NCBI GenBank assembly: GCA_047973385.1
Contig: JBKEBX010000022.1
Location: 11,521 to 75,520, forward strand
Source of the DNA: Lachnospirales bacterium
GTDB lineage: Bacteria; Bacillota; Clostridia; Lachnospirales; CAMZNU01
Direction of reading: 5' to 3'
Length of the DNA stretch: 64,000 nucleotides
Below are positions 7,226 to 56,129 of the stretch, piece after piece. The notes below the pieces were generated by a model. That model was not told where the DNA came from, made no database searches, and worked only from the letters and a program-made list of their open reading frames with translations. Within the stretch, counting starts at the first letter, position 1; the number at the start of each line of letters is the position of its first letter. A program made the translations under genes and the position numbers.

Positions 7226-7382
7226 GGTAATCTCTAAAAACTTATTTTTCGACCTTGAAAAATATAGAAAAATCCATTTTCCGCCTTTGTCAAAAGTATG
7301 AAAATTCTCTTTTTCTTTTGCAACGTTTACATTTATTTTAATTTTTCAAAAGTTAAAAATAAATGAAGTTTTAGAGGTGACC
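7226..7382. mobile_element. MITE-like element (outer), containing a nested copy
   Basis: Ends GGTAATCTCTAAAAACTT and AAGTTTTAGAGGTGACC; flanked by TAAA on both sides. Confidence 0.65.
7248..7330 (+). mobile_element. MITE-like repeat, internally deleted copy (nested)
   Basis: CGACCTTGAAAAATATAGAAAAATCCATTTTC...TTTTGCAACGTTTAC aligns to the 12843 and 56011 copies; flanked by ATTT/ATTT. Confidence 0.75.
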
Positions 7383-7408
7383 TAAAAAATTATATTATAG
7401 GTATTAAA

Positions 7409-8845
7409 ATGAAAAAAAATGGTAACTTAGACTTTGATGTATACTTAGAATTCAAAAAAAATATTGAAGAAAATAAAATGCTATTAGACAAAGATAGGCT
7501 TATTGTCGCCCTCTCTGGAGGGGTAGATTCTGTGTCTTTGCTATGTTTGCTTAAAAAATATATAGAAGAAAACAACTTAGATATTAAGATTGAAGCATGT
7601 CACATAAATCATCAAATACGTAGCGATGCTTTAAATGACGAAAATTTTTGCAAAAAATTATGCGATAGTCTAAGTGTAAAACTTCATATATGGTCTTTTA
7701 ATGCTGAAGAAAAATCAAAAAAAAATGGTCAATCTGTGGAAGATGCTAGTCGTACTTTTAGATATGAAACTTTTTCCAAAAACTTTAAAAATTATAAAAT
7801 TTTTATCGGTCATAACAAAGAGGATAAATGTGAAACTTTACTTTTAAACTTAGCTCGTGGTGCAGGACTTGACGGTCTTTGCTCAATGAATTTTATAAGC
7901 CTTAACAAGTACAACTCCCTACTTTATCGTCCACTACTTAGTATTAACAAAATTTATTTATATGAATATCTTAAAAGTATAAACTGTTCTCATAAAGAAG
8001 ATTATACAAACGCAGATTTAAATTATACTAGAAATTATGTAAGAATTAATATTTTACCTTTGTTCGAAAATGTAAATCAAAACTATATCGACAATATATA
8101 TAAAAGTTCTATGTTGCTAAAGTCTGATAAAGATTATTTTGATGAGATTGTAAAAGAAGTCTATAAAAAAGTTTATATTAATAAGTTTTCAATAAATTTA
8201 AAAGTTTTGTATTCCTATCATATTTCTATTCAACGTAAAGTCATACGTTATGCTATTAAATTATCTTTTACATTAACTGATATAACTTTAGAGCATATTG
8301 ATAATATTTTAGAATTAGGTGCAAAAAACGGAACAAAAGCTATAAGTCTACCAAGCAATATTACAGCTACCACATACAATTATGTCCTATTTTTAGAGAG
8401 TAATATCAAAAACACACAAAATGAGGCATTTTCTTACAATATTATTCCCGAAAAACTTATATATGTTAAAGAAATTAACCAATATTTTTTCTTAACAAGT
8501 AACTCTGACACTGAATTTTTAACTGATTGTTTGAAAAATCAAAGTAATTTTAATTTTGCAGTTGTAAAATCCTTTGAAATTATGTATAATTATTATTATG
8601 ATATCCTTTTACGGTATAGACAAAATGGAGATAAAATATATATTCCATCTTTAAGAGGTACAAAACAAATTAAGAAATATTTTATTGATGAGAAAATACC
8701 TATCCATTTTCGTGATAAAACACCTCTTATAACCAAAAAAGATAGTAATGAGGTTTTATGTATATTAGATAAAAAAGGTATTTGTTCTACACCTACTGAC
8801 ACAAAGGATAATAAGATTTATTTATATATATTGGAGGAAATATAA
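7409..8845 (+). CDS. tilS: tRNA(Ile)-lysidine synthase
   Basis: SGGVDS PP-loop, GHNKEDKCET, RPLL, TRNYVR; synteny. Confidence 0.95.
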   Translation: MKKNGNLDFDVYLEFKKNIEENKMLLDKDRLIVALSGGVDSVSLLCLLKKYIEENNLDIKIEACHINHQIRSDALNDENFCKKLCDSLSVKLHIWSFNAEEKSKKNGQSVEDASRTFRYETFSKNFKNYKIFIGHNKEDKCETLLLNLARGAGLDGLCSMNFISLNKYNSLLYRPLLSINKIYLYEYLKSINCSHKEDYTNADLNYTRNYVRINILPLFENVNQNYIDNIYKSSMLLKSDKDYFDEIVKEVYKKVYINKFSINLKVLYSYHISIQRKVIRYAIKLSFTLTDITLEHIDNILELGAKNGTKAISLPSNITATTYNYVLFLESNIKNTQNEAFSYNIIPEKLIYVKEINQYFFLTSNSDTEFLTDCLKNQSNFNFAVVKSFEIMYNYYYDILLRYRQNGDKIYIPSLRGTKQIKKYFIDEKIPIHFRDKTPLITKKDSNEVLCILDKKGICSTPTDTKDNKIYLYILEEI

Positions 8846-8847
8846 AA

Positions 8848-9378
8848 ATGACTGAGTACATTGATGTTTTAATCAGTAATGAAGATTTACACAAGAGAAT
8901 TAAAGAAGTAGCCGAAGAAATCAATAGAGATTACGCAGGTAAAGAAATAGTTTTAATCGGTGCTTTAAAGGGTGCTGTTATGTTTATGGTAGATTTATCT
9001 AAGGAGCTAACTTGTGATGTCAAGTTTGATTTTATAGATGTTTCTAGCTATCATGGAAGTACTGAAAGTTCAGGTAATGTTGTTTTAAACAAAGATATTG
9101 AACATGATATAACAGACGCTCATGTTCTTCTGGTTGAAGACATTGTTGATACTGGACATAGCCTTGTTGCTATTCGTAATACTTTAGAAAAAAAGAATCC
9201 TGCTTCTCTTAAAGTATGTGCTTTACTTAATAAACAAGAACGACGTGAAGTTGAAAATCTTGTTGTTGATTATCTAGGTTTCGAAATTCCTAATAAATTT
9301 GTTGTAGGATATGGTCTTGACTATGACCAAAGACTTCGTAATCTTGATTATATCGGCATTATGCGTTTCAAAGACTAA
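8848..9378 (+). CDS. hpt: Hypoxanthine phosphoribosyltransferase
   Basis: VEDIVDTG PRPP loop, FVVGYGLD. Confidence 0.97.
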   Translation: MTEYIDVLISNEDLHKRIKEVAEEINRDYAGKEIVLIGALKGAVMFMVDLSKELTCDVKFDFIDVSSYHGSTESSGNVVLNKDIEHDITDAHVLLVEDIVDTGHSLVAIRNTLEKKNPASLKVCALLNKQERREVENLVVDYLGFEIPNKFVVGYGLDYDQRLRNLDYIGIMRFKD

Positions 9379-9413
9379 ATAACTTAAACAAAAAAAATCA
9401 AAAGAGGTAATCC

Positions 9414-11669
9414 ATGGGAAAACACTTTAGAACAGTATTTATATACTTGCTAATTTTTGCAGGTATTTTGTTGGCCGTATATTTGTCTAATAACGGTAGA
9501 ATAGACTCACAAAGTCATAGTAACATATATTCATACTCGGACCTTGTACATGATCTTACTAATAAAGTTGAGGGTATAGACGATGTTACTATAATGACTA
9601 GCACTAATGTAGATAACTCTGCAACAGTTACTTTTACACACACAGATGATACTACTACATCAAATCACAGTATCTATGTACCAGATCTTGAAACTTTCTT
9701 GCCATTGTTACAAGACTATTCTGATACATTTGATATTCAATATAATACCCTTGAACCTACTCAACAAATTGATTACAGAAGTTTCTTGCTCCCTACTATA
9801 ATCTTTATATTTGTAATTTTTATGCTAATGTTAATTATGCGTCGTGCAAACGGTGGTGATGGTGGTGCTGCCAGTTCTATGAATTTCGGTAAATCACGTG
9901 CAAAAATGATTGTCGATGACTCTGCTTCTGTTACCTTTGATAGCGTAGCTGGACTAGATGAAGAGAAAAAAGAACTTGAGGAAGTTGTAGAATTTTTAAG
10001 CAACCCTACTTCATTTACAAATATAGGTGCAAGAGTTCCAAAAGGTTTCTTGCTCGTTGGCCCTCCTGGTACAGGTAAAACTTTACTTGCTAAAGCTGTT
10101 GCCGGAGAAGCTGGTGTACCTTTTTTCAGTCTATCAGGTTCAGACTTTGTAGAAATGTTTGTTGGTGTTGGTGCTTCAAGGGTTCGTGACTTGTTTGCTC
10201 AAGCAAAGAAAAATAAACCTTGTTTAATTTTTATAGATGAAATTGATGCTGTTGCTAGAAAACGTGGTGCAGGTCTTGGTGGTAGTCATGATGAACGTGA
10301 ACAAACACTTAACCAACTTCTTGTTGAAATGGACGGTTTCGCAACTGATGAAGGTATAATTATACTTGCTGCCACAAACAGAGTTGATATTTTAGACCCT
10401 GCAATTTTGCGACCAGGTCGTTTTGATAGACGTGTTACAATCAACCCACCTGACTTAAAAGGTCGACTTGAAATGTTATATTTACACTCAAACAACAAAA
10501 AAACTAGCGAAGATATTGACTATAAAACTGTAGCTCAACAAACTGTTGGTTTTACAGGTGCGGATATAGAAAACTTACTTAACGAAGCTGCTATTTTAGC
10601 TGTTCGTAAAAACCAAGAAAGTTTTGATATGAACTGTATACGTGAAGCTTACATCAAAGTTAGTGTAGGAATGGAGAAAAAAGAACGTCTTATTTCCGAT
10701 AAAGAAAAACGTATTACTGCATATCATGAAGTAGGCCATGCTATTTTACACGAAATGTTACCCGAACTTGACAGTGTTCAAATAGTATCTATTATCCCAA
10801 CTGGCTCGGCAGGCGGATATACTATGTATGCCCCATCAAATGATATGTCATACACATCTAAAACTAAAATGATTCAAGATATTATTTCGCTTCTAGGTGG
10901 TAGAGTGGCTGAAGACATTTTCTTTAGCGATATTACAACAGGTGCAAGTAACGATATTATGCGTGCTACAAAAATTGCTCGTGCTATGGTTACAAGATTT
11001 GGTATGTCAAATCTTGGTCCTATCCAATATGGCGAAGATGAACATGATGTATTTTTAGGTAGAGATATTTCATCAAGAAATACACTTAGTGAAAGTATTT
11101 CATCACAAATTGATGCAGAAGTTAAAAGTATTATTGATGACGCTTTAGCCACTGCCTACGAAGTAATTAATAAATACAAAGACTATTGTCATGATGCTGC
11201 TGAACTTTTACTTAAAAATGATAAAATTATTGGCAAGGAATTTAGAGCTGTGTTCCCTGAAGGTACTTTCCCTGCTAAAGAAGATATTTTAGATTTAAGC
11301 GACCAAATTGATGAGTATGATGCCGTAGCTAAAGAAAAGGCAAAACGTGCTAAAGAAAATCAAGAAAAGAAACGTTTAGCTAAAGAAAAAATTCGTAAAG
11401 AACGTGAAGAAGCTTTCTATAATAATATTATCAAAAGCAAGAACCAAAATTCAAAAAACAAAGATAATATGACTTATGAAGATTTCATCAAAAATCGTGA
11501 TGAGAAAATGAAAAATCTTGAAAATTTGAAAAAAGCTGATTCAGAGAAAAAAGTTGAATTAAATAATACTGAAAAATCAAAAAATGATGTTAATAAAGAT
11601 GACAAATCAGACGATAACATTGTAGATAGTAAAGATGACAATACCGATGATAACGGTACTGACAAGTAA
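9414..11669 (+). CDS. ftsH: ATP-dependent zinc metalloprotease FtsH
   Basis: 2 [21 protein letters not shown]; long charged C-terminal tail. Confidence 0.97.
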
Positions 11670-11676
11670 AATACTT

Positions 11677-11716
11677 TAAAGCCTGTATAAGCTAATATAA
11701 TACAGGCTTTATTTTT
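11677..11716 (+). terminator. Intrinsic terminator after ftsH
   Basis: TAAAGCCTGTAT...ATACAGGCTTTA then T run. Confidence 0.8.
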
Positions 11717-11810
11717 AAAAACGGTTAAAACTTTTGCTTTCTACTGGATTACACATTCCGATTAGTCTTCCCACCACCTACGTTACACCTATAGGTTTGT
11801 TACTTGACTT

Positions 11811-11886
11811 GGTATCATTGCAAAATGCAATTTATGCCAAAATTTCCAATGTAAATTCAAGACATTGCAAAATATAGAAACTTTCC
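11811..11886 (+). repeat. Degenerate composite of MITE-family ends
   Basis: GGTATCATTGCAAAA start and GACATTGCAAAATATAGAAACTTTCC (left end fused to right end). Confidence 0.5.
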
Positions 11887-11916
11887 TAATAAATATGAAA
11901 GATTGAGGTGATTATT

Positions 11917-12840
11917 TTGAATTTTATTGACAAAGTTAAAAAAAGTATTTTTTATGAATTTGTTATGAAAGTACAAGAAAATGAATTAACTTACTTAGCG
12001 TCTGAACTTACACTAAAGATTATTGTTGCTATGTTCCCTTTCCTTATGTTTCTTATAGCCGTTTTAGGTACTTTAGACCTTCAAGTAACATCGCTTATTA
12101 ACTTTTTTGGCGATTCATTTCCTGATAGTATAATAGACATTTTGAATATGTTTTTAAAATCTATTTCAAAAACAGGTTCTGCATCAAGTATTATGTCTGT
12201 TTCATTACTTGTTGCTATATTCTCTGCTGCAAGTGGTTTTAGTGCTGTAAATCGTGGTATAAATAAAACCTATGGTGTTACTGAAAATCGAAACTTTATA
12301 CATAAAAAAGTTATTTCCGTGTGTCAAGTTTTGCTTTTCACCTTCGCCATTGTTTTATCTATGTTTACTATGATATTTGGTGACGTGATTATCAACGCAC
12401 TTAGTGTATTTGAAGTAGTTAACTTTTTAGAATTTGACTTTCCCTATGAGAAAGTTCTTAGCATAATCGTATTTTCTATAATGACATTGCTTATTATGAT
12501 TATATATTCAATCGGTTCATCATATAAGGTTAAGTTTATAAGTACCCTACCTGGCTCAATTTTTACACTTATTTTTTGGGCTTTAAGTTCTAAAGTCTAT
12601 AATATTTATATAAACAACTTTTCTAAATATTCTGCTGTTTATGGTACTCTTGGAACTATACTTATTTTCATAGCTTGGCTTAATATTATTTCCATAGTTC
12701 TGCTTATAGGTAGCCAAATAAACGCAATGATATATTCATCAAATTTCTATAAAAATCTTTCTGTAAAAAATGTTGCTTCAGCAATAAAAGATAAGCTAGT
12801 TGCACTAAAAAATTTAGTGTTTGGTAAAGAAAAAATATAA
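11917..12840 (+). CDS. YihY/virulence factor BrkB family membrane protein
   Basis: Multi-TM; YSAVYGTLG...AWLNIISIVLLIGSQIN signature. Confidence 0.9.
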   Translation: MNFIDKVKKSIFYEFVMKVQENELTYLASELTLKIIVAMFPFLMFLIAVLGTLDLQVTSLINFFGDSFPDSIIDILNMFLKSISKTGSASSIMSVSLLVAIFSAASGFSAVNRGINKTYGVTENRNFIHKKVISVCQVLLFTFAIVLSMFTMIFGDVIINALSVFEVVNFLEFDFPYEKVLSIIVFSIMTLLIMIIYSIGSSYKVKFISTLPGSIFTLIFWALSSKVYNIYINNFSKYSAVYGTLGTILIFIAWLNIISIVLLIGSQINAMIYSSNFYKNLSVKNVASAIKDKLVALKNLVFGKEKI

Positions 12841-12842
12841 AT

Positions 12843-12968
12843 GGCGACCTTGCAAAATGTAGAAAAATCCATTTTCATAATAAATAATGGCTTTGTGAAG
12901 TTTGTCAAAAACATGAAAGTTTGGTTTTCTTTTGCAATGTGCCATTATTTCAATTTTCCAACGTTTCC
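12843..12968 (+). mobile_element. MITE-like repeat, full-length copy (126 bp)
   Basis: GGCGACCTTGCAAAA...CCAACGTTTCC; highly similar to reverse complement of 56011-56129; flanked by AAAT/AAAT. Confidence 0.8.
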
Positions 12969-12972
12969 AAAT

Positions 12973-13028
12973 AAAAAGGGGCTGTAAGAAAACTCACCAA
13001 TAATTCTAGTGAGATTTATTACAGCCCC
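12973..13028 (-). terminator. Terminator of the dnaG-sigA-ytvI unit
   Basis: GGGGCTGTAA...TTACAGCCCC stem with T tail on the minus strand. Confidence 0.75.
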
Positions 13029-13049
13029 AAACTATTTTTATTACATAAA

Positions 13050-14123
13050 CTATAAATCTGTTTTTTCAACATTACTTTTCATTTTTTCATTAACTGCAAA
13101 AAACTGTTTTGCCACAATAAGCATAAACGGACCTACAATTAGTCCAAAGAACCCTATTAGCCTTAAACCTATATACATAGACATAAGCAATAACAATGGA
13201 TGAATTTCAAGTTTCTCACCTAAAAATCTTGGTTCTAAAAACTGTCTAGTAAGCAAAATAATAACATAGGTTACAAATAGTGATACACCTATAAAATACT
13301 GTTGATTAATTAAATAGTATACACCCATTGGCCATAAGAAAAACCCCGAACCAAAAAATGGTAGCACATCAATAATCGCTATCCCTATTGCAATTAACAA
13401 TGAATATTTTATACCTAGAATTATTAAAGATATTAAGGCAATAGTAAAAGTAACGGACATCAGTTTAAGTTGTGTAGACACATAACCTGATATTACTGTT
13501 AATCCACTATTTTTAAAATGAAGCAAATATTCTTTTACTTTAACTGGGGTATACTTTCTTACAACTTTAGCTACAAGTTCCCTATCTCGCATAAAAAAGT
13601 AACTAGATATACAACCCATTATAATTATACTAACTGCACTCTTTGCAAACTCAAAAACATTTTGAGGTAACTCTTTAAAAGTCCCAACAAAATATGTAGA
13701 TATGCCTTTAAGCAAGTTTGAGAACATACTTATAGAAAACTCTTCAATAAAGTTTGGTAAAATATATATAAACTCATCAAGCCAATAAATAACCTTATCA
13801 TATGCAACTATAACATTTACGTATATCGTTTCATAATTAGCAATTAAATCTCTACTTTGGCTTACTATCGCTTGTATCAATAGGGCTATAAAAGAACCTA
13901 TTATTACAACAAAAAAAACTAAACTAAGGGCAGCTGAAAGCCCTTTATTCAGTTTAAATTTGTTCTCACATATGTTAAATATCGGACGTAACATCCATGA
14001 AATAATATATCCAACTATAAAAGGAGCAAACAAAAATAATACAAGTTTATAACCTAAAATAAGTATAATAATTGATGCGATAAAAATCCCTACTTTTTTT
14101 ACAAAGTCATTAACTTGTATCAT
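13050..14123 (-). CDS. ytvI: Sporulation integral membrane protein YtvI (AI-2E family)
   Basis: DVLPFFGSG, RQFLEPRFLGEKLEIHPL, GLIVGP motifs. Confidence 0.85.
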   Translation of the reverse strand: MIQVNDFVKKVGIFIASIIILILGYKLVLFLFAPFIVGYIISWMLRPIFNICENKFKLNKGLSAALSLVFFVVIIGSFIALLIQAIVSQSRDLIANYETIYVNVIVAYDKVIYWLDEFIYILPNFIEEFSISMFSNLLKGISTYFVGTFKELPQNVFEFAKSAVSIIIMGCISSYFFMRDRELVAKVVRKYTPVKVKEYLLHFKNSGLTVISGYVSTQLKLMSVTFTIALISLIILGIKYSLLIAIGIAIIDVLPFFGSGFFLWPMGVYYLINQQYFIGVSLFVTYVIILLTRQFLEPRFLGEKLEIHPLLLLMSMYIGLRLIGFFGLIVGPFMLIVAKQFFAVNEKMKSNVEKTDL

Positions 14124-14144
14124 ATTTGCCTCCCTAAAATTTTA

Positions 14145-15311
14145 CTACATATCTAAATAATCTCTTAATTTCTTACTTCTATTTGGATGTCTAAGCTTTC
14201 TAAGTGCCTTCGCCTCAATCTGTCTTATACGCTCACGTGTAACTTTAAACTCTCCACCAACTTCTTCTAATGTCCTAGCTCTACCGTCCTCAAGACCAAA
14301 TCTTAAAATTAAAACTTTTCTTTCTCTTTCTTGTAAATCATTCATCAAAACTTCTCTTATGTGTTCATTTAAAAGTATCGATGCTGCAGCCTCTGAAGGT
14401 TCTGGATTTAAGTTATCAGAGATAAAGTCGCCTAAATGTGAATCTTCTTCTTCGCCAATTGGTTTTTCTAAAGATGTTGGTTCTTGTGAAATTTTCATAA
14501 TTTCTCTAACTTTTTCAACAGGCAAATCCATTTCTACTGAAAGTTCTTCAACTGTTGCATCTCGTCCAAGTTCTTGTAATTTCTGTCTTTGACAACGCAG
14601 TAATTTGTTTATTGTTTCAACCATATGAACAGGTATACGGATTGTTCTAGCTTGGTCAGCAATTGATCTTGTTATAGCTTGACGTATCCACCAAGTAGCA
14701 TAAGTTGAAAATTTAAAGTTACGTTCATGGTCAAACTTCTCAACAGCCTTTATAAGACCAAGGTTACCCTCTTGAACTAAATCAAGGAAGTGCATACCTC
14801 TATTTGTATATTTTTTACCTATGGAAATAACAAGTCTAAGGTTAGCCTCAATAAGCTTTTGTCTAGCTTCTTCATCGCCTTCTTTCATACGTTTTGAAAG
14901 TTCTTTTTCCTCATCTGCAGTAAGCAGTGGAATTTTACCAATTTCTTTTAGGTACATTCTTACATGGTCATCAATATTAAAGTTTTTTTCAACAGCCTCA
15001 ATATCGTAGGTTACTTCTGGTTCTTCTTCGTCTTTAAGTTCTTCATCTGGTACGTCATCTATATCCTCTAAATCACTTAAAGGATCTGACGTTGAGATTA
15101 TATCAAGCATATCAACATTATCTGTTATGCTAATCCCCTCGTTATCAAGATACTCTGTTATATTTGAAAAAAGACTTACGCTTACATCTCTGTCACTAAA
15201 AAACTCTTTGATTTCCTTAGAGGATATACTATTATTGTTTTGAAACGCTTTAGCCTTAAGTTCCTCTAATTTTTTTAAAAATTCTTCTTGCTTTTTCTTA
15301 TTCATGTCCAA
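14145..15311 (-). CDS. sigA: Primary sigma factor SigA/RpoD
   Basis: [37 protein letters not shown]; follows dnaG. Confidence 0.98.
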
Positions 15312-15319
15312 CCTCTTTC

Positions 15320-17056: not shown

Positions 17057-17103
17057 ATCACTCACCTTCTAAAACATTACCATTACAACTGCTCTACTAC
17101 TAT

Positions 17104-17130
17104 ATTAGACAAAAAACTTTAAAACCCTTT
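17104..17130 (-). promoter_or_regulatory. Putative SigH promoter upstream of dnaG
   Basis: AAAGGGTTT-N11-GTCTAAT versus SigH consensus RNAGGAWWW-N11/12-RNNGAAT. Confidence 0.4.
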
Positions 17131-17148
17131 TTCATAATAAAAATTTTG

Positions 17149-18420: not shown

Positions 18421-18451
18421 ATATCCTCCTACTATCTGCTTATTTTTCACT

Positions 18452-18483: not shown

Positions 18484-18500
18484 CTATTCAAACAATAATT

Positions 18501-32456: not shown

Positions 32457-32632
32457 GGACTTTATTGTAAGATGCAATTATGCCAAGTTTTGTGTAACAA
32501 ATCTAAGACACCTAAAAAATGTGCCAATTTACAGGAATAGCTGGAAATTACGATTTGACCTAAACTTAAAGAACACTATAAAGTTAATGTGTTGATAATT
32601 ACAAACAAAACAGTTTGCTTTTAGATGTTGCC
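32457..32632. repeat. Degenerate MITE-family-related composite in the leader
   Basis: TTGTAAGATGCAATTATGCCAA resembles 11818-11840; AATGTGCCA module; right end TTTTAGATGTTGCC. Confidence 0.4.
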
Positions 32633-33345: not shown

Positions 33346-33389
33346 GGAAACGTTGCAAAATTAAAATGATAGCATATTGCAACGTTTCT
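33346..33389. mobile_element. Mini-MITE (44 bp)
   Basis: GGAAACGTTGCAAAATTAAAATGATAGCATATTGCAACGTTTCT matches 56011-56047; flanked by ATAT/ATAT. Confidence 0.7.
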
Positions 33390-45021: not shown

Positions 45022-45034
45022 CAGGAGTGTATTA

Positions 45035-46803: not shown

Positions 46804-46818
46804 TTATATTTAGCGTAA

Positions 46819-46857
46819 AAAAACTATAAAGTTCTTGTTTTGAACTTTATAGTTTTT
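46819..46857. terminator. Bidirectional terminator
   Basis: AAAAACTATAAAGTTC...GAACTTTATAGTTTTT. Confidence 0.85.
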
Positions 46858-46863
46858 GATTTA

Positions 46864-47088
46864 CTAATCTATTTTCTTCTTAACAGATTTTAAAAATTTA
46901 TCACGCTTTAACATAACAATATGTCCACAGCCTCTGCATTTTATCTTAAAATCTATTCCAACTCTAATAATCTCCCAAGAATTCTCGCCACAAGGGTGCT
47001 GTTTTTTTGTAACAACATAATCTCCTACCTTATATCCCGAAACACTTTTAGATACTTTTTCCTCATTTCCATAATTTTTTATATCCAT
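46864..47088 (-). CDS. DUF951 (YyzM-like) protein
   Basis: KKQHPCG..WEIIRVGIDFKIKCRGCGH. Confidence 0.88.
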   Translation of the reverse strand: MDIKNYGNEEKVSKSVSGYKVGDYVVTKKQHPCGENSWEIIRVGIDFKIKCRGCGHIVMLKRDKFLKSVKKKID

Positions 47089-47108
47089 AAAATCACCCTC
47101 AAGTAAAA

Positions 47109-48197: not shown

Positions 48198-48214
48198 TCT
48201 TTCCTCCAAAAATT

Positions 48215-48310
48215 AGTCATAATGACTTTTCCTTCAAGTGAAGCTTTTAGCATTCACTTACGGTAGACTAGCTCATTGCTCTATAAAGCGTCATAGAGCT
48301 AATCTGTACC
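48215..48310 (-). ncRNA. Candidate structured cis-regulatory RNA upstream of mscS
   Basis: Three consecutive stems; more GC than other intergenic regions; no U tail. Confidence 0.45.
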
Positions 48311-48311
48311 A

Positions 48312-49196
48312 TTAATCTATTTTATTATCCATAACATTATCAATCTCTCTTTCAAATTTTTCAAGAAAGTTATGATATATCCCATCTTTTTTATATCCCA
48401 AAACAGCATCAAGGTGAACATTAAATGCCGACCTCATAATTGATTTTGGTGCATTCGGATTGAACATAGATAAGTATTTTATTGTTTGTTTTATTTCATC
48501 TCTTTTAGTTGAAGTTTTTGAAGCAACTACCATACAACCACAATTCATAAAATTCAGCTTTGTATTTTTCGCCCACTTCTTTATTGCACTTTCATGTATA
48601 TAAAACATAGGTCTTGTAAGTTCCATATCTTCAAAGTTATCGGCCATAATTCTTGGCATCATGGTTTTAAAGTTACCTGCATAAAGAATGTTTAGCATAG
48701 TTGTTTCTATAACATCATCAAAATGGTGACCAAGAGCTATTTTATTACAACCATTTTCCTTTGCATAGTTATATAAAAAGCCTCTACGCATTCTCGCACA
48801 CATATAACAAGGATTATCCCCTGCTATTTTTTCAGCAACAGAAAAAACATCACTATTTTTTATATTCAGAGGTATATTTAAATACTCTGCATTTTCAATT
48901 AATGTATTTCTATTTATCTCGTTGAAACCTGGATCCATGGACATAAAAAAAAGTTCAAACTTTTTCTTACCATGTCTTTGTATTTCCTGAAAAAGTTTAG
49001 CTGTTAAAAAACTATCTTTACCCCCACTTATACAAATGCCAATTTTGTCACCATCTTCAATTAGGTTAAATTCATTTATAGCATCTATAAAGGGTTTCCA
49101 AATTTCTTTTCTATAAGTTTTTATAATACTTCTTTCAATATCTCTATTAGATATACGTTCAGACTTATCATATTGTTCCTGTAATGTACAATTCAT
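48312..49196 (-). CDS. TtcA-family tRNA thiolation PP-loop ATPase
   Basis: SGGKDS, PCYMCARMRRG, GHHFDD. Confidence 0.88.
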   Translation of the reverse strand: MNCTLQEQYDKSERISNRDIERSIIKTYRKEIWKPFIDAINEFNLIEDGDKIGICISGGKDSFLTAKLFQEIQRHGKKKFELFFMSMDPGFNEINRNTLIENAEYLNIPLNIKNSDVFSVAEKIAGDNPCYMCARMRRGFLYNYAKENGCNKIALGHHFDDVIETTMLNILYAGNFKTMMPRIMADNFEDMELTRPMFYIHESAIKKWAKNTKLNFMNCGCMVVASKTSTKRDEIKQTIKYLSMFNPNAPKSIMRSAFNVHLDAVLGYKKDGIYHNFLEKFEREIDNVMDNKID

Positions 49197-49303
49197 TTTT
49201 TGCTCCATTTTTAAAAATCATAACTCTAGCCCATTAATTATACATGATAATAACATAAATTTCAACTAAAAAAGTCAAAAAAATTAATTTTCGACTTTTT
49301 TTA

Positions 49304-49960
49304 TTATATGTTTTTAATAAAATAATTTAAAAAACCATATTGCTCACTTAATCTTTCCATATGCCACTGAATACCAACTATTTTTTTGTCTTCGCTTTCA
49401 AAAGCTTCTATATAATTATCTTCATCAGAAACTGCCGTTGCTATAAGTCCTTTACCAAGTTTGTTTACAACTTGATGATGAACAGAATTAACCTCAATTT
49501 TACTTTGATTAAAATAAGAAGATAATATACTATCTTCACGAAGCTTAGCCCTATGAACCGTATCCAAATGATTTTCAATATGTTGATTTATATTACCTCC
49601 AAGAGCCACATTAATTACTTGCATACCACGACAAATGCCAAAAATCTTTTTGTTTTGTCGTATGGCTTCTTTTACTAATCTAATTTCAAACAAATCTCGT
49701 TTAATTGGTACTAAATCTATAAAACTTTCATATTCTTTTTTTATAGTATCCTTAAATAAGTCAGGGTTAATATCTCCACCACCTGTAAGTAAAACTGCAT
49801 CACACATACTTACATATTTTTCAATATTATCAAGATTTGTATTTGTTGTCGTAATTGGTAAAAGATTACTCGCTTCTACAAACCTAATATAATTTACACT
49901 AAGTGTATAATTTTCTTCAGTCAGGTTACTTGCAACTAAAATAATAGGATTTAAACTCAC
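49304..49960 (-). CDS. Gamma-glutamyl-gamma-aminobutyrate hydrolase family (peptidase C26)
   Basis: GGGDINP, GICRGMQ, VNSVHHQ, QWHME. Confidence 0.9.
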   Translation of the reverse strand: MSLNPIILVASNLTEENYTLSVNYIRFVEASNLLPITTTNTNLDNIEKYVSMCDAVLLTGGGDINPDLFKDTIKKEYESFIDLVPIKRDLFEIRLVKEAIRQNKKIFGICRGMQVINVALGGNINQHIENHLDTVHRAKLREDSILSSYFNQSKIEVNSVHHQVVNKLGKGLIATAVSDEDNYIEAFESEDKKIVGIQWHMERLSEQYGFLNYFIKNI

Positions 49961-50159
49961 ACCTATACCTCCCAGTTAGTTTATAATATATTATATTAAT
50001 CAAAAAGCTTTTTGTTCCTTTTTAAAAATCTCATATTTTAAAAAGTATCATAAAGTTAAACAAACTCTTATATACTATAAAAGAGATTTCTACAAACTAA
50101 AAGACCTTTAGCTCCCTAAAAGTCCAATTAGTTTATAAGAATGTACTAGATTGCACGAA

Positions 50160-50405
50160 TTATAGTAACTTCGACAATTCTTTTATAGTGGATTTGGATA
50201 CAAGTTTACCGTTATACTCTACCAAATCGTCTTTAACCCCTGTAAATATATCACATGGATCATGCTTCTTTAAGATGATTTTATCACCTTCAACATAAAT
50301 CTCAATAGCATCACTTTCATTTACATTAAGGTTGCGACGTAGTTCGATAGGTAATACAACACGACCGAGTTTGTCGATTTTTCTTACGATTCCTGTTGAT
50401 TTCAT
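50160..50405 (-). CDS. abrB: AbrB-family transition-state regulator
   Basis: MKSTGIVRKIDKLGRVVLPIELRR. Confidence 0.93.
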   Translation of the reverse strand: MKSTGIVRKIDKLGRVVLPIELRRNLNVNESDAIEIYVEGDKIILKKHDPCDIFTGVKDDLVEYNGKLVSKSTIKELSKLL

Positions 50406-50527
50406 AGTATGACCTCCTATCCAACACAAGACATCACCTTTGTATGGATAATTATAGCATATTTTTTTACAAAAGTAAACATTAAATTATAAAAAAGTAA
50501 TATTTTATTAAGAAAGGACGTGTTAAA

Positions 50528-51109
50528 TTGTTAAATTATATTTGGGGATTAATGTTAATTATATCTCTTGTATATTCTTTTATTTTTGGTAGCACAAGCG
50601 AAATCGTAAACGAAATTCTAAACTCAGGAAAAGATACTGTAAATCTAGTTATAAACATTGTGGGGATTATGGGTATTTGGTCTGGAATAATTAAAATCGC
50701 TGAAAAGTCCGGTATGGTAGATGTGCTTTGCATTGCCCTCTCTCCTTTACTTCAATTTTTATTCCCTAAAATACCAAAAAACAGTAAAGCTATGAAATAT
50801 ATATCTGTAAATTTTGTCGCAAATTTACTAGGTCTATCTTATGTGGCAACTCCTGCAGGTATAAATGCAATGATAGAGCTTAACAAACTCAACAAAACCC
50901 CTGGTCGTGCAACAAAAGAAATGTGTAACTTCCTTATAATCAATATGTCAAGCCTACAAATTATTTCTATAAATATCATTGCATATAGAAGTCAGTATAA
51001 CTCTGTAAACCCACAGGAAATTATTGGTGCTGGGCTTATTGCTACCTTTATAACAACAGTCTTTGCAATAATGTTTACAAAAGCTGCTGATTATTTTGTA
51101 AAGGAGTAA
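50528..51109 (+). CDS. spmA: Spore maturation protein A
   Basis: MLNYIW, ANLLGL..ATPAG, INMSSLQ. Confidence 0.92.
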   Translation: MLNYIWGLMLIISLVYSFIFGSTSEIVNEILNSGKDTVNLVINIVGIMGIWSGIIKIAEKSGMVDVLCIALSPLLQFLFPKIPKNSKAMKYISVNFVANLLGLSYVATPAGINAMIELNKLNKTPGRATKEMCNFLIINMSSLQIISINIIAYRSQYNSVNPQEIIGAGLIATFITTVFAIMFTKAADYFVKE

Positions 51110-51112
51110 ACT

Positions 51113-51655
51113 ATGAACTATTTTAATTATTTAATTACATATTTTTCAAATGGTATAATACCACTATTTATTTTTGTTGTCATTTTACATAGTCTATACA
51201 AAAAAGTTGATATATTTGAGGTTTTTAAAGAAGGTGTATTCGAGGGTGTAAAAACAGTTTACCTGATTTTCCCAACTATTTTAGGGCTTATGATGGCTGT
51301 ATCACTACTTCGTAGTTCAGGTTTTTTAGAACTTTTAAGCTACCTATTTTCATATATTGTACCTCAGAGCTTTCCCGCCCACACTATACCTTTATGTTTA
51401 ATGCGTCTAGTGTCGAGTTCTGCTGCAACAGGTATTTTATTAGACCTTTTTGACACCTATGGTGCTGATTCATTTACAGGTAGATTTATAAGTGTAATGA
51501 TGAGTAGTACTGAAACTGTTTTTTACACTATGAGTGTATATTTTTTAAGTATTAAAATTACAAAAACAAGATATACATTATTAGGTGCATTGCTTTCCAA
51601 TTTAATTGGTATTGTAGTTGCCTACTTCACAACTATAAGTATATTTGGATTTTAA
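51113..51655 (+). CDS. spmB: Spore maturation protein B
   Basis: SSTETVFYTMSVYF, KTRYTL. Confidence 0.92.
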   Translation: MNYFNYLITYFSNGIIPLFIFVVILHSLYKKVDIFEVFKEGVFEGVKTVYLIFPTILGLMMAVSLLRSSGFLELLSYLFSYIVPQSFPAHTIPLCLMRLVSSSAATGILLDLFDTYGADSFTGRFISVMMSSTETVFYTMSVYFLSIKITKTRYTLLGALLSNLIGIVVAYFTTISIFGF

Positions 51656-51663
51656 ATTTTTTA

Positions 51664-51692
51664 TTGACCTTATGGCTAATTTATATTATTAT
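51664..51692 (+). promoter_or_regulatory. SigA promoter of SBP gene
   Basis: TTGACC-N17-TATTAT. Confidence 0.55.
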
Positions 51693-51702
51693 TAAGTATA
51701 TA

Positions 51703-51749
51703 GGCACATTGTAAAGAAAATCAAATTTTCACACTTTGCAAGGTCGCCC
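51703..51749 (-). mobile_element. Mini-MITE (internal deletion derivative)
   Basis: Reverse complement GGCGACCTTGCAAAGTGTGAAAATTTGATTTTCTTTACAATGTGCC matches both parts of the 12843/56011 copies; TATA/TATA flanks if the end is 51749. Confidence 0.7.
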
Positions 51750-51794
51750 TATACTGTTTTACTTAAAATAAACTTCACGTTTGGAGATATACAT

Positions 51795-53051
51795 ATGATT
51801 AAAAAAATAATTTTTGTAACATTAATAAGCATTTTTATAGTAATGTTTCTAGGAAGTTGTGAACGCACAACTGAAGCTCCTGATGAAATCGTTATTATGA
51901 CTATGTTCGGTAAAAATACATATACTTGGAATGAATATAATAAAATTTTAGATTCTTTTCGTGAAAAGTACCCTGAAGTTAATTTCGTAGATTATTCTGA
52001 AACATCTTCAGAAAAATGGAAAGAATCTATGGTAACTAATTTTAAACAAAACAAAGAACCTGATATTCTTTTTTATTTTGTTGGAGAACAAGCTTCATAT
52101 ATGACAGAAAATAATTTAGTCGTTTCTGTTGATGAAATAAGAAATTTTTATCCTAATTACGCTTCAAACATTTCCTATGTTGCAAACAATTATATGCAAG
52201 ACGAAAGCGGCATACAATACGCCGTTCCTATACGAGGTTTTTGGGAAGGAATGTATATAAACAAAGATATGTTTGATAAATATGATTTACCTGTACCTAA
52301 TACATGGGAACGACTTAGTCAAGCCTTTTATGTATTCCATTCTAACGGAGTTACACCTATTGCCGCTTCTCTTGGTGAAGTTCCACATTATTGGATAGAA
52401 AATACTATTTTATCAGTTGGAGGCATTGACTCTCACGAAATAAATATAAGTCCAACAACTGGCACTCCTAGAAGTTGGTTAGACTCTCTTGATGTTATAA
52501 AAAATCTATATATAAATGGTGCTTTTCCTGAAAACACTTTAACTATGACAAATTCAGAAGCCATAGAAATGTTTAAAAATAAAGAAGCCGCCATTTTAGT
52601 CGATGGTTCTTGGGTTGTTGAAGAGCTAACAGACTATGAAAACATTATGGTGTTAGACTTTCCTAGCTATACAAATGGTCTAAAAAAAGAAGGTGAAGTT
52701 ATTGGTGGTTTTACAAGTGGTTTTTATATAACTAACCGTGCATGGACTGATGCAGAAAAACGTAATATCGTTGTTGAACTTGTATCAGAACTTACTTCTA
52801 ACGAATCAATATATAACTTTTCTAAACATAGTTACGCCCCTGCTGCCGATATAGATATTGTACTTGACAATAATCCTCTTGGTGTTAGCTCCTACAACCT
52901 ATTTAATAAAATAAATAATGTATGCAGTCCTATTGATTCAAGTATGAAGCCTGAAGCCTGGTCATATTTAACAAATAATTTTACAGCTTATTTAAAAGAT
53001 GAAATAACTGCTGAATCTCTTTTGACCAATACTGCTGAGTTAAACAAATAG
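51795..53051 (+). CDS. Orphan extracellular solute-binding lipoprotein (carbohydrate SBP family 1-like)
   Basis: Lipobox LGSC; YAVP, YINKDMFDKY..PNTWE, DGSW. Confidence 0.85.
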   Translation: MIKKIIFVTLISIFIVMFLGSCERTTEAPDEIVIMTMFGKNTYTWNEYNKILDSFREKYPEVNFVDYSETSSEKWKESMVTNFKQNKEPDILFYFVGEQASYMTENNLVVSVDEIRNFYPNYASNISYVANNYMQDESGIQYAVPIRGFWEGMYINKDMFDKYDLPVPNTWERLSQAFYVFHSNGVTPIAASLGEVPHYWIENTILSVGGIDSHEINISPTTGTPRSWLDSLDVIKNLYINGAFPENTLTMTNSEAIEMFKNKEAAILVDGSWVVEELTDYENIMVLDFPSYTNGLKKEGEVIGGFTSGFYITNRAWTDAEKRNIVVELVSELTSNESIYNFSKHSYAPAADIDIVLDNNPLGVSSYNLFNKINNVCSPIDSSMKPEAWSYLTNNFTAYLKDEITAESLLTNTAELNK

Positions 53052-53198
53052 TTGTGTTAAAAAGTTTTTTAAATAAATGATGAAGTTTTGAAAAAGTTAA
53101 AAAATAAGTCTTTTTGTGTATATTAAAATATACAAAAATATTTATTTTTTTGTTAATAGAAAAATTTACGTTAATTTAAAGGTTACTTTTTAATATAT

Positions 53199-53294
53199 GG
53201 TTTTATTGCAACCATAAAAGCTCCATTTTCATAACAAAACAATAGCTTTGTGTTTTTGACAAAAATTGCGAAATGGCTTTTTTGCAATAAAAAA
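53199..53294 (+). repeat. Degenerate/rearranged MITE-family copy
   Basis: GGTTTTATTGCAA start; CCATTTTCATAACAAAACAATAGCTTTGT core; TTGCAATAAAA end merging into the terminator. Confidence 0.6.
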
Positions 53295-53325
53295 GGTTGT
53301 AAAATTATTTACAACCTTTTTTATT
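53286..53325. terminator. Bidirectional terminator
   Basis: AATAAAAAAGGTTGTAAA...TTTACAACCTTTTTTATT. Confidence 0.85.
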
Positions 53326-53331
53326 AAAGTT

Positions 53332-55881
53332 TTATTCCTTAACGCCTATGGATTTTGCCATATTTTCATCAGCGTCCCAAAAAGTATACATATTTATTAC
53401 CTCAGTAATATATCTAAAGGGTACCATAAGTCTATCATTTACTATAACAGAGTTCAATGGTTGATTATTGACATTGTACATTTCAAAATATTCTCCATTT
53501 AATGTATAAACATTACTGTCTTTATAAAATTCAATAACTGTACCGTCTAAAAGTATAACTGTTGCCTTACCTTCCTCTTGGTTCCAATAAAGTGGTATCT
53601 CACCCTCTTTTATCTCTGCCATTGCTCGAAGCATTACCATTGTTGAATCTGTTTCATCATCAATATATGATGGAACTTCGCAAATATAAACTAATGTTTC
53701 ATTAAAGGTTCTTATGTATATATTTTTAGTATCAATCTCAACTTCGTACATTTTTAGATTTTTTACTATATCTGCTAACTCTTCATCAAAATTACCATTT
53801 TCAAACCAATCTTCAACTTTATCATTATCTAAGCCACCATTTTCAATCATATCAGCAATTTCATCGTCAATATTGTTATCAAAATCAGTATCCGTTTCTG
53901 TTTCATCATCGTCGTCATTGTCATTATTATCTGTGTCTGTATCAGTGTCTGTATCAGTATCTGTATTCGTATCTATTTCACTTTCAGTTTTTTCATATAC
54001 TGCTACTGCATTTACATCTTCTGTAACTACTGTTGGAGCCGTGTCTGCTATTCCATCATTGTCATAGTCGAAACCTAAAAACTCGTATCCCTCATTCGCC
54101 ACTACATTTGGCTCACTTGGAAAATCCGAACCAATTGTTAAATTTTCGAAATCAGATATATCTGAAATACTACCATGCTCTCCATTAGTAAAGATAACAT
54201 CTACAGATTTCAAAGGTATAGATTGCTTATCCGTAAAAGATTCTTTTTCATCAGTCCCAAAATAATAAACAGTACTATAATCTAAATCTACATTAAGATC
54301 ATCAGCTGTGTATTCTAAAGTATTTTCGTCTTTTAGTATAACATCAAATTTAATAGTAGCCGATTCCCCTGGTTCCATAATTATTTCTGAAAAATGCATA
54401 GTCACAACGCCCTCTACTTCATCATGAGATACATCAAAACTACCTTCATTTTCTATATTTTCAACTTCACCAGTTAGATATGCATCTTTAACATCAACTG
54501 TTATATCAATTTCATAAATATTAACATTTGTATCATTAGTAATTGTAGTTGTTGATGTCAACACTTCTTCAAAATCAGCTTCTTCATCATCAGTATCAGT
54601 TAACTCATGACGTACATTAACTTCACCCTCACGTTCACCTGTAACAACAACAGTAGCTGTACCAGTAACAGGAACTATTTTCCCATCTATTACTGTATCA
54701 TAACTATATGTAAAAATATATTCACCCATGCCTGAAGTTTCTGGGTCATATCCTCCTGTTGAAACTCTTTCCGTATTTTCCCCCTTTTTAGTTACCACAT
54801 AATTAATTATTTCATTGTATGTAGGTTTTAACAACATTTCAATAGTTTCGAGCGTAGTTCCTTTTTCCACTTCTATACGGTCATTTTCAAAGTTTAAATC
54901 TAATATACCACTTGGAGTACCAACGATTGATAAAGTGTTGTAAACCTCTTGCTTAATATGGTCAGGTGCTTTAAATGCTAGTCCTGCATATTGATATTTT
55001 AGTAAAGATTGAGGTAAATTTGCCTTTGTAAAATAAACTTCTGGAAATTCCTCTACACTTATAGGACTATCATTACTCGTAACTTCCAACTTATCTTCTT
55101 TGACTAGATTTACAAACTCCATAGCAATATCTCCTGGATTTTCAGGGTCATCTACAGTTGTAGAAACCATCCATATATTTGGATTTTCCACTTCATCAGT
55201 TGTATCTAAATCATCTGACCCCTCAACAGTTGGATCTACGCCTACGATGTATGCATTGTAAGAAGGTGCTATATAGTCGGATATCCATGTAGTGTTTATT
55301 ATAGCCTCAGAATTATTATCTGTTTTTGCTTTATGTCCAAAAGCTTTTGTGTCTTCATAAGTATTATTGTAAAAATAAACTTCATTTGCTGCACTACCTG
55401 GATTGTTACTACTTAAAGCTAATCCTTCACTTATAAAAAAGCCTGTACGCTGTTGTGCAACTGAACTTGAATATGTTGTAAACATTGCATATCTTTTAGA
55501 AGTGTCAAGTAAATACTTACTTCTTAAAAACAGTGTTTTACCAGGATCAACTACATATGAATCATTTATTGGATTGTACACAAATCCTGAATTATCCATT
55601 TCATTACCATCAGAAGTTATAATATAGTCACTCCAATCTAGTATTAACGTTTCCGAACTCGTTACTACGTCATCAACTTCAAGATTACCCCAATTTATAT
55701 GAGCAATATCTCCTTCTTTTACAGATGAACCTTTTACAGATGAACCTTTTACAGATGAACCACTAGTATTGTTTGTACTTGTTTCATATTTCTCTGTATA
55801 ACTAGAAGTCGCATATACTGGCACTGTATTAAGCACCATTACACCGACTAACCCTGTTAATAAACTTTTTCTATTTAACAT
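53332..55881 (-). CDS. Secreted acidic surface protein with InlB-B-like repeat and C-terminal copper amine oxidase N-terminal (stalk) domain
   Basis: Signal peptide (VYA), NEGYEFLGF repeat motif, DT linker, TMVMLR and DRLMVPFRYITE..WD motifs. Confidence 0.75.
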   Translation of the reverse strand: MLNRKSLLTGLVGVMVLNTVPVYATSSYTEKYETSTNNTSGSSVKGSSVKGSSVKEGDIAHINWGNLEVDDVVTSSETLILDWSDYIITSDGNEMDNSGFVYNPINDSYVVDPGKTLFLRSKYLLDTSKRYAMFTTYSSSVAQQRTGFFISEGLALSSNNPGSAANEVYFYNNTYEDTKAFGHKAKTDNNSEAIINTTWISDYIAPSYNAYIVGVDPTVEGSDDLDTTDEVENPNIWMVSTTVDDPENPGDIAMEFVNLVKEDKLEVTSNDSPISVEEFPEVYFTKANLPQSLLKYQYAGLAFKAPDHIKQEVYNTLSIVGTPSGILDLNFENDRIEVEKGTTLETIEMLLKPTYNEIINYVVTKKGENTERVSTGGYDPETSGMGEYIFTYSYDTVIDGKIVPVTGTATVVVTGEREGEVNVRHELTDTDDEEADFEEVLTSTTTITNDTNVNIYEIDITVDVKDAYLTGEVENIENEGSFDVSHDEVEGVVTMHFSEIIMEPGESATIKFDVILKDENTLEYTADDLNVDLDYSTVYYFGTDEKESFTDKQSIPLKSVDVIFTNGEHGSISDISDFENLTIGSDFPSEPNVVANEGYEFLGFDYDNDGIADTAPTVVTEDVNAVAVYEKTESEIDTNTDTDTDTDTDTDNNDNDDDDETETDTDFDNNIDDEIADMIENGGLDNDKVEDWFENGNFDEELADIVKNLKMYEVEIDTKNIYIRTFNETLVYICEVPSYIDDETDSTMVMLRAMAEIKEGEIPLYWNQEEGKATVILLDGTVIEFYKDSNVYTLNGEYFEMYNVNNQPLNSVIVNDRLMVPFRYITEVINMYTFWDADENMAKSIGVKE
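55716..55760. repeat. Perfect 15-bp tandem repeat x3 (encodes GSSVK)
   Basis: (CTTTTACAGATGAAC)3. Confidence 0.95.
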
Positions 55882-55951
55882 AAATTTCCCCTTACTATTT
55901 AATACTCTAATTCACCACCACATGCCCTTAAAATATAAATAATAGGGTTAT

Positions 55952-55980
55952 ATTATAGCAATAATAATTATTATTGTCAA
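55952..55980 (-). promoter_or_regulatory. Consensus SigA promoter of the surface protein
   Basis: TTGACA-N17-TATAAT with extended TG. Confidence 0.8.
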
Positions 55981-56010
55981 TAGTTAGCCATATTGCTTCA
56001 TTTTTCATTA

Positions 56011-56129
56011 GGAAACGTTGCAAAATTGAAATAATGGCACATTGCAAAAGAAAAAGCAAATTTTCATACTTTCGACAAAGCCGTTGTTTTGCTATGAAAA
56101 TGGATTTTTCTATATTTTGCAAGGTTGCC
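56011..56129 (-). mobile_element. MITE-like repeat, full-length copy (119 bp)
   Basis: Reverse complement GGCAACCTTGCAAAA...TTGCAACGTTTCC; flanked by ATTA/ATTA; contains TTTGTCGAA. Confidence 0.8.

Follow-up and report, generated by a model that had tools for sequence, protein, structure and literature searches.

The window, i.e. the whole 64,000-nt stretch analyzed here, lies on contig C24 of a 2.48-Mb genome of an uncultured, gut-type member of the Lachnospirales (G000), and carries several copies of a MITE between its genes. All the copies listed in an earlier note on this DNA were found, at the same positions or within a few bases. Two are full copies of a short form and share 82% identity: one of 126 nt (12843–12968, + strand), with AAAT on both sides (12839–12842 and 12969–12972), and one of 119 nt (56011–56129, - strand), whose flanks read TAAT along the element (ATTA on the + strand). 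The left repeat of the former overlaps the TAA stop codon of a YihY-family gene (11908–12840). The latter is located between a queuosine-precursor transporter gene (56145–56885, - strand) and a promoter-like site (55980–55952, - strand), which has a 12/12 match and is upstream of the gene at 53332–55881.

The other copies are shorter or incomplete. An internally deleted copy of 83 nt (7248–7330, + strand), with mutated ends (TTCGACC... and ...GTTTAC) and ATTT on both sides, sits upstream of tilS. A mini-element of 44 nt (33346–33389, no strand assigned) consists of two right-type ends, inverted relative to each other (GGAAACGTTGCAAAAT...ATTGCAACGTTTCT), between two ATAT flanks, and at 53199–53294 (+ strand) there is the left part of a long form, with left end GGTTTTATTGCAA and left flank ATAT, its right side being truncated beside a hairpin. 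A 47-nt copy (51703–51749, - strand), which scores below the profile threshold, has the left end GGCGACCTTGCAAA and stops at an internal second end (...CAATGTGCC). Matching 4-bp flanks had been claimed for five copies; those at 12843 (AAAT), 56011 (ATTA), 7248 (ATTT) and 33346 (ATAT) were confirmed, whereas the 47-nt copy has TATA, not TAAA, on both sides with the earlier bounds, which are uncertain by one base, the site being ambiguous because the left end reads GGGCGACC. Two further sequences, at 11811–11886 (+ strand; end GGTATCATTGCAAAATGCAATTTATGCC...) and 32457–32632 (+ strand; 176 nt, GGACTTTATTGTAAGATGCAATTATGCC ... GATGTTGCC), had been taken for degenerate pieces of the same repeat, but are members of another family (family B), which is rarer and has the same type of end; used together as queries, they gave 34 BLAST matches in G000. 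No Rfam 15 covariance model matched the window at gathering scores.

The MITE family and its target sites

A profile search of G000 yielded 242 matches, which merged into 192 elements spread over many contigs and making up 0.86% of the genome. The average spacing is one element per 12.9 kb; the earlier estimate of one per 8–10 kb holds for the window (about one per 8 kb) but not genome-wide. Both ends are present in 106 elements, and for all of these the ends and flanks were tabulated. The left terminal inverted repeat is GGCGACCTTGCAAAAT and the right, reverse-complemented, is GGAAACGTTGCAAAAT. Two-ended copies range from 76 to 338 nt and fall mainly into size classes of 113–129 nt (n = 43) and 160–176 nt (n = 41), most copies measuring 44–176 nt, too short to encode a transposase, so that the element is non-autonomous, as had been proposed. 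Since the MITE is a long imperfect palindrome with a second, internal right end, it occurs in short, long, half and mini forms. The median pairwise identity among copies is about 80%. At least 60 matches were also found in G001, the sole other species genome of the genus, and among 301 genomes from the order the family was detected in only these 2, which belong to one genus; a DNA-level search of plasmid and phage collections gave no match. The repeats are therefore, as the earlier note had it, a real dispersed family with inverted ends, comprising about 190 small non-coding MITE relics between genes.

The genome-wide tabulation of flanks, which the earlier note had proposed, revealed 4-bp matches well above chance. 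Exact direct matches occur in 44 of the 106 two-ended copies, whereas 5000 partner shuffles gave 12.7 on average and never more than 24; after removal of two copies on duplicated contigs, 43 of 104 match, against 12.6 expected and at most 24 in any of 10000 shuffles. Exact repeats are thus present in only 41% of the G000 copies, and in G001 they flank 15 of 19 copies. Among the non-palindromic 5' flanks (n = 72), 23 match directly and 2 in the inverted register. The chance of a match at any one site had been put at about 2%; we found about 12%, since the flanks are biased to the consensus A-W-W-T, and the excess is still clear. The outermost flank position covaries as well: of the 12 copies that have T at -4, 6 are T/T. 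Since nearly all copies have T as their fourth flank base and a shared non-T base was seen in 0 cases, the duplication may also be of 3 bp plus a fixed T.

Comparison with the sister species showed that insertion sites common to both are no more frequent than expected by chance. For 26 gene ends that lie beside a G001 copy and have an ortholog in G000, a G000 element was present within 450 nt at 3, the background being about 9%. At two sites, the genes on either side have orthologs that are direct neighbors in G000, with no element there; as the species are far apart (48–86% protein identity for neighboring genes), these "empty" sites are not alignable base for base, and loss and gain are inseparable. 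The orthologous sites of two window copies in G001 are uninformative, because on one side conserved gene order stops precisely at the element, and the neighboring 849-aa gene was not found in G001, G002 or G003. No within-species empty site was seen: a metagenome scan with the transporter gene beside the 56011 copy returned 72 loci, the best being 57% identical and hence not from near strains, and no sequencing runs were listed for positions 50500–58500 of the window. Nested insertions are present. At G001 locus L118, a MITE copy lies inside a family B element at TTGCAAAAT, with AAAT on both sides where the target has a single AAAT, and on contig C3 of G000 an insertion-sequence end comes immediately after the TTGCAAAAT of a MITE end. 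A pattern search for more such cases in G000 gave 11 matches, of which 2 were relevant.

The partner insertion sequence and the origin of the copies

A search for a transposase gene bounded by the same ends, also proposed in the earlier note, led to a decayed IS5-family insertion sequence of about 1.1–1.2 kb on contigs C18/C41, C26, C68 and C3 of G000. Matches to PF01609 were found on C18, C41, C26 and C68 and none on the window contig, C24, in agreement with the earlier statement that the window holds no transposase, as far as this family with its genome-wide matches is concerned. Both ends of the insertion sequence are GGCAACGTTGCAAAATA, which agrees with each MITE end at 15 of 17 bases; in the aligned copies the left end is GGCAACGTTGCAAAATAAC, the right end is ...TATTTTGCAACGTTGCC and the inverted ends are 17 bp long. 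The flanks at these ends (AACT, ATAT, AAAT, ACTT and ATTT) follow the pattern A-N-N-T, as those of the MITE do, and a sixth end, on C5, has the flank CGAT outside this pattern. Every copy of the insertion sequence in G000 is broken, and so is the one examined in G001: they show in-frame stops or deletions, a contig break lies inside one, and none among them has both ends with matching flanks.

The local transposase fragments contain DUF772 and DDE_Tnp_1 domains (Pfam) and match NF033581, "IS5 family transposase", with E values of 6e-35 (121 bits) and 2e-17 (63.7 bits), scores that fall below the 140-bit whole-protein cut-off because the fragments are only pieces; an intact relative in genome G232, 58% identical, scores 244.9 bits. 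Among the families that the earlier note had named for 4-bp duplications, IS5 is thus the one that fits, by the NF033581 match and the near-identical ends. Among the genomes searched, the closest relatives of the transposase fragment were in the same two that carry the MITE. Intact 320-aa relatives with 89–92% identity exist in public data (including P0003), plasmid-borne IS5-family transposases share at most 41% identity with P0003, and a scan of a genome collection with the fragment gave one locus, apparently the G001 copy. Two other candidates were rejected: an insertion sequence suggested by solo ends 1.8 kb apart on C5, which proved to be two half-elements flanking serS, and an IS4-like element on C54 (422-aa open frame), whose ends (GTCGTCAACTTAAG) are unrelated to those of the MITE.

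These data make it very probable that the DDE transposase of the IS5-family insertion sequence moved the MITEs in trans, the terminal inverted repeats of the two being nearly the same. Mobilization in trans, as proposed earlier, is thereby supported, and the matching IS5-type ends suggest that the likely mobilizer resides elsewhere in G000. The transposase would bind the ends of about 17 bp (GG-N5-TTGCAAAAT), the element would be excised or copied and inserted at A-W-W-T with a staggered cut, and repair of the cut would leave the 4-bp direct flank repeat. The family in G000 looks old and is probably inactive, considering the identity of about 80% among its copies and the broken state of every local insertion-sequence copy.

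The earlier note had pointed to a likeness to IS26, an IS6-family element with a similar end (GGCACTGTTGCAAA). The likeness lies in the GG-N5-TTGCAAA spacing named there and goes no further: the IS6-type DDE domain (PF13610) had 0 matches in G000 while control genomes responded, direct 8-bp flank matches were found in 0 of 106 copies, and an IS5-family element with closer ends is present. We therefore rejected derivation from, and movement by, an IS6/IS26-family element, an origin we consider hardly credible. Only marginally less improbable is that the copies are palindromic intergenic repeats of the REP/BIME or another kind, which owe their spread to recombination or a Y1 (RAYT-type) transposase and not to a DDE transposase. 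Such an origin would suit the long palindrome, the intergenic location and the abundance of half and mini forms (34 elements are left-only and 48 right-only); REP elements, however, are not known to make flank duplications, whereas the MITEs here have them, and the MITE ends match a DDE-type insertion sequence in G000.

Nearly all surviving copies lie between genes, mainly on the downstream side of a gene: 169 of the 192 elements are intergenic although G000 is 85% coding. This raises the question of whether the mobile relics are also kept for host work as RNA or DNA hairpins, acting as terminators, transcript stabilizers or insulators downstream of genes. As RNA, the consensus is predicted to fold into a long hairpin (short form, -34 kcal/mol; long form, -58), several copies directly follow gene terminators, and regions between convergent genes have more than their share of copies (56 of 175 classified copies versus 183 of 1205 intergenic regions), but purging of harmful insertions would equally give enrichment downstream of genes. 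Moreover, there is no strand bias relative to neighboring genes (56 opposite, 42 same), neither of the full copies in the window has a terminator-like or a strong promoter-like site, with only weak 9/12 promoter-like matches inside, and the sites are not conserved between the two species. A host role thus appears unlikely, and transposition by the IS5-type enzyme, followed by survival between genes, is the reading we prefer.

Relation to known elements and wider meaning

Similar MITEs are the Neisseria ATR (parent ISNme1) and the Porphyromonas gingivalis MITE464/PgRS and BrickBuilt elements (ISPg1/ISPg4/ISPg9). All of these, like the MITE described here, are small, non-coding and intergenic, and are predicted to form long hairpins, and in each host an IS5-family insertion sequence matches their terminal inverted repeats. 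The ends of ISNme1 (GAGACCTTTGCAAAA) and ISPg4 (GAGACTGTTGCA), as given in Table 2 of PMC4596501, are of the same type as GGCGACCTTGCAAAA of the MITE; outside the end motif the sequences are not similar. The consulted part of that paper gives 19 copies each for ATR and BrickBuilt, far below the 192 found here. In contrast to this group, the MITE lacks an internal minisatellite, and its host is an uncultured Lachnospirales genus; its flank repeat is a regular A-W-W-T 4-mer, whereas those of BrickBuilt vary in length.

The partner insertion sequence resembles the IS5 group (E. coli IS5/InsH type) in having DUF772 and DDE_Tnp_1, a length of about 1.1–1.2 kb and ends that start with GG, but differs in that all the local copies contain a 20-codon insert with an in-frame stop. 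The target of IS5 is YTAR, unlike the A-W-W-T found here. A 4-bp target duplication is a trait of the IS5 group. No statement of this length was found in the consulted parts of the MITE and insertion-sequence literature searched. Correia elements (CREE) of Neisseria are likewise very abundant intergenic repeats of a small genome, with terminal inverted repeats and length variants arising by internal deletion. They duplicate TA, and to our knowledge no parent transposase has been identified for them, whereas the duplication made by the MITE is apparently of 4 bp and G000 contains an insertion sequence of the parent type. A 2024 review (PMC10969869), in the consulted part, puts the number of Correia elements at more than 120. 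Neither in the consulted part of that review nor in that of a 2024 census of 183,232 genomes, which took bacteria from RefSeq and excluded putatively contaminated MAGs (PMC11602168), did we find mention of Clostridia or Lachnospirales. The family is thus new but belongs, as an ordinary case, to a familiar class, that of MITEs with IS5-type ends, and leaves the general understanding of MITEs unchanged; with it, an uncultured genus of the Lachnospirales provides a MITE/IS5 pair that is clean and well bounded.

The insert mentioned above is a segment of about 57–60 nt (20 codons with an in-frame TAA) that interrupts the transposase gene in every local insertion-sequence copy and is absent from the intact 89–92% identical relatives. 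In the sister species it forms a module of the 229-nt MITE, and contig C82 has one further occurrence; at E values up to 0.1, Rfam gave no match for this module or for MITE loci, four loci with MITE or insertion-sequence copies being covered. It is conceivable, if rather doubtful, that the segment is an independent ultra-small mobile insertion, a parasite of a parasite, which may have killed this line of the insertion sequence before spreading within the MITE. In that case, the modular make-up of the family, with its inner and outer ends, half and mini forms and copies in each other's TTGCAAAAT ends, would record repeated self-targeting and not only deletion.

For work on these genomes, a single family that occupies about 0.9% of G000 breaks assemblies, many copies in G001 being near contig ends, and may mislead searches for regulatory RNAs. 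In annotation, it accounts for most of the long intergenic palindromes in these genomes, and its copies offer about 100 paralogous "empty sites" that expose insertions of other small repeats.

Size and anatomy of the repeat family

The two full-length copies that the earlier note had described, 12843–12968 (+) and 56011–56129 (−), were confirmed and are 82% identical, and a repeat search of the window related the pieces at 7248, 33346, 51703 and 53199 to them. The genome-wide search that it had proposed was run on the draft assembly (2.48 Mb, 82 contigs, G+C about 30%; the window is C24:11521–75520), by BLAST and then with a profile from 46 near-full-length copies (E ≤ 0.01). It gave 242 matches, which reduce to 192 elements once neighbours are merged; both ends are present in 106 of these, the left end alone in 34 and the right end alone in 48, and the other 4 are internal pieces. 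Together they occupy 21,439 nt (0.86% of the genome), at one element per 12.9 kb. Two-ended copies include a short form (113–129 nt, 43 copies) and a long form (160–176 nt, 41 copies), the latter distinguished by an additional hairpin module in its interior, GGAAATGG...CCATTTCC. Copies have a median pairwise identity of 80%. Two pairs on duplicated contigs are nearly identical and have flanks in common; apart from these, the closest pair has 94.8% identity and unrelated flanks.

At the left end, 32 copies have GGCGACCTTGCAAAAT and 16 a GGCTTCA variant; the right-hand terminus is ATTTTGCAACGTTTCC. The two termini thus form inverted repeats of the type GG-N5-TTGCAAAAT. The entire element is a long imperfect palindrome: its left arm base-pairs with a second right end in the interior (...TTTTGCAATGTGCC), and the true right end lies ~25 nt further on. 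This arrangement explains the variants previously called modular: 51703–51749 terminates at the internal end, 33346–33389 consists of two right ends back to back, and 7248–7330 lacks the middle. The pieces at 11811–11886 and 32457–32632, formerly taken for degenerate copies, belong instead to a rarer repeat family, B; as BLAST queries, these two pieces had 34 hits between them genome-wide. Family B has the same type of left end (GG-N5-TTGCAAAAT), differs in its interior (…TGCAATT(T)ATGCC…), and is also found in the sister-species genome G001, where one copy hosts a nested MITE.

A separate ~80-nt repeat, starting ATATAATG and containing two hairpins, is present outside the window at C37:19716–19795 and C37:71270–71350, at the same internal insertion point of two MITE copies (TTGCAATG^TGCC). 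Genome-wide it has 63 BLAST hits, and some of these form tandem arrays (e.g. C78:88011–88387). Since about 100 uninterrupted MITE copies represent empty sites, this repeat is suggested to be mobile itself.

Target-site duplication

Directly matching 4-bp flanks were found in 44 of the 106 two-ended copies, whereas 5000 shuffles of the flank partners gave 12.7 on average and never more than 24; with two duplicated-contig copies removed, the figures were 43 of 104 and 12.6 expected. At 5, 6, 7 and 8 bp, direct matches fell to 2, 1, 0 and 0 copies. The 72 copies with non-palindromic 5' flanks gave 23 direct matches versus 2 in the inverted register. The flanks follow the pattern A-W-W-T, with strong covariation at the two inner positions (76 and 77 matches versus 45 and 50 expected) and covariation at the first as well (of 12 copies with T there, 6 are T/T). 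The last base is nearly always T and never varies in step, so the duplication may be 3 bp beside a fixed T rather than 4 bp. Four of the five flank repeats reported earlier in the window stand as given; the fifth is TATA, not TAAA, with ambiguous bounds. The chance of a match, put at ~2% per site, was too low (about 12% here), but the excess remains plain.

A decayed IS5-family partner

The earlier note had pointed to a likeness with IS26 (IS6 family). This origin was rejected because the genome has no match to the IS6-type domain PF13610 and 8-bp flank repeats are absent. The search it had suggested, for a transposase bounded by matching ends, led to a decayed insertion sequence of the IS5 family. 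Six matches to DDE_Tnp_1 were found genome-wide. The one on C54 was rejected as a partner, being an unrelated, apparently intact IS4-like element (C54:~3130–4560; 422-aa open frame matching DDE_Tnp_1, ends GTCGTCAACTTAAG) in DNA of higher G+C and phage- or island-like appearance. The remaining matches are copies of one insertion sequence, on C18/C41 (split by a contig break), C26 and C68 (with an internal deletion); BLAST added another copy, truncated, on C3, and fragments of the right end on C6 and C5.

Aligned copies have the left end GGCAACGTTGCAAAATAAC and the right end ...TATTTTGCAACGTTGCC, forming a 17-bp inverted repeat identical to each MITE end at 15 of 17 positions. Five of the six ends seen are flanked by AACT, ATAT, AAAT, ACTT or ATTT (A-N-N-T), like the MITE copies, and the sixth (C5) by CGAT. 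The reading frame matches NCBIfam NF033581 (IS5 family transposase), Pfam DUF772 and DDE_Tnp_1. All local copies are broken: the N-terminal part of the transposase has stops, and between ...GLIHS and VKFTA... the frame has an insert of 20 codons that includes an in-frame TAA; public data hold intact 320-aa relatives (89–92% identity) without this insert. Plasmid-borne relatives reach at most 41% identity and are all annotated as IS5 family.

The frame of every local copy is interrupted by a segment of ~57–60 nt with an in-frame TAA, GGAATTT(T)CAC...GTGAAAAC...GGGTTCTTTAC (C41:~33–94, C26:~6131–6216, C68:~13077–13155); a further example of the segment lies at C82:9747–9804. It is absent from the intact relatives P0002 and P0003, has no Rfam match, and recurs as a module within the G001 MITE (loci L114–L131; about positions 50–106 of the 229-nt element). 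At C68:13315–13489, the right end of the deleted copy passes directly into an inverted MITE, with the palindromic core ACGTTGC common to both; this chimeric junction could have originated by recombination between ends.

Mobility, genomic context and known relatives

In a sample of the order (301 genomes), matches to the MITE came from two, both of this genus, and relatives of the transposase fragment from seven, the closest in this genus. G001, the sole other species genome of the genus compared, has at least 60 MITE matches and a broken copy of the partner insertion sequence. Its main form is ~229 nt, with copies that look much alike by eye in alignment, and exact 4-bp repeats flank 15 of 19 two-ended copies (ATAT, AAAT, ATTT, AATT). 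Where genes neighbouring G001 copies have an ortholog in the source genome, an element lies within 450 nt at only 3 of 26 gene ends there, close to the background of about 9%; in the two of these three cases that were examined closely, L137 and L118, subfamily, flanks or structure differ between the elements of the two genomes. At two G001 sites, the flanking orthologs are adjacent in the source genome with no element between. At one such empty site, ATAT just 5' of a conserved terminator hairpin corresponds to ATAT-element-ATAT in G001. The nested G001 copy lies directly after TTGCAAAAT of its family B host, with AAAT on both sides, whereas other B copies have a single AAAT; in the source genome, an insertion-sequence end likewise lies directly after TTGCAAAAT of a MITE end. 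The MITE therefore has its preferred target within its own end, and this goes some way towards explaining the compound forms. A metagenome scan for near strains gave a best relative of 57% identity; we infer movement within the species.

Although the genome is 85% coding, 169 of the 192 elements are intergenic (<10% overlap with crude ORF calls). By gene orientation, 56, 98 and 21 of 175 classed elements lie between convergent, tandem and divergent genes, compared with 183, 824 and 198 intergenic regions, respectively; the elements thus favour gene 3' sides. Their strand is not biased with respect to adjacent genes (opposite for 56, the same for 42). The consensus is predicted to form a strong hairpin on either strand. 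Rfam searches gave no match, and within the two full-length copies of the window there is no terminator-like site and the promoter-like matches are all weak. The elements may have a role in the host, but these data give no support to one. The sequence at 55952–55980 (−) is a perfect match to a sigma-70-type promoter (TTGACA, 17-nt spacer, TG-TATAAT, 12/12), just downstream of the MITE at 56011–56129 and upstream of an 849-aa gene (53332–55881) that has no NCBIfam match and was absent from G001–G003 in our search.

Our literature searches brought up no paper describing a Lachnospirales MITE; the searched text of the review PMC10969869 and of PMC11602168, a census of RefSeq bacteria leaving out putatively contaminated MAGs, mentions neither Clostridia nor Lachnospirales. 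The nearest described families are the IS5-family-linked Neisseria ATR (parent ISNme1) and Porphyromonas gingivalis MITE464/PgRS and BrickBuilt. Their parent insertion-sequence ends, quoted as GAGACCTTTGCAAAA and GAGAC(C/T)(A/G)TTGCA (PMC4596501), are of the same motif type as those here. Judged by the counts quoted for other bacterial MITEs, >120 Correia elements, up to 711 ERIC and 468 MITEs in one cyanobacterium (PMC10969869, PMC11602168), 192 copies is high but inside the known range. The observation first made in the window is confirmed and its interpretation supported, with IS5 rather than IS6 as the partner family: this is a typical IS-derived MITE.
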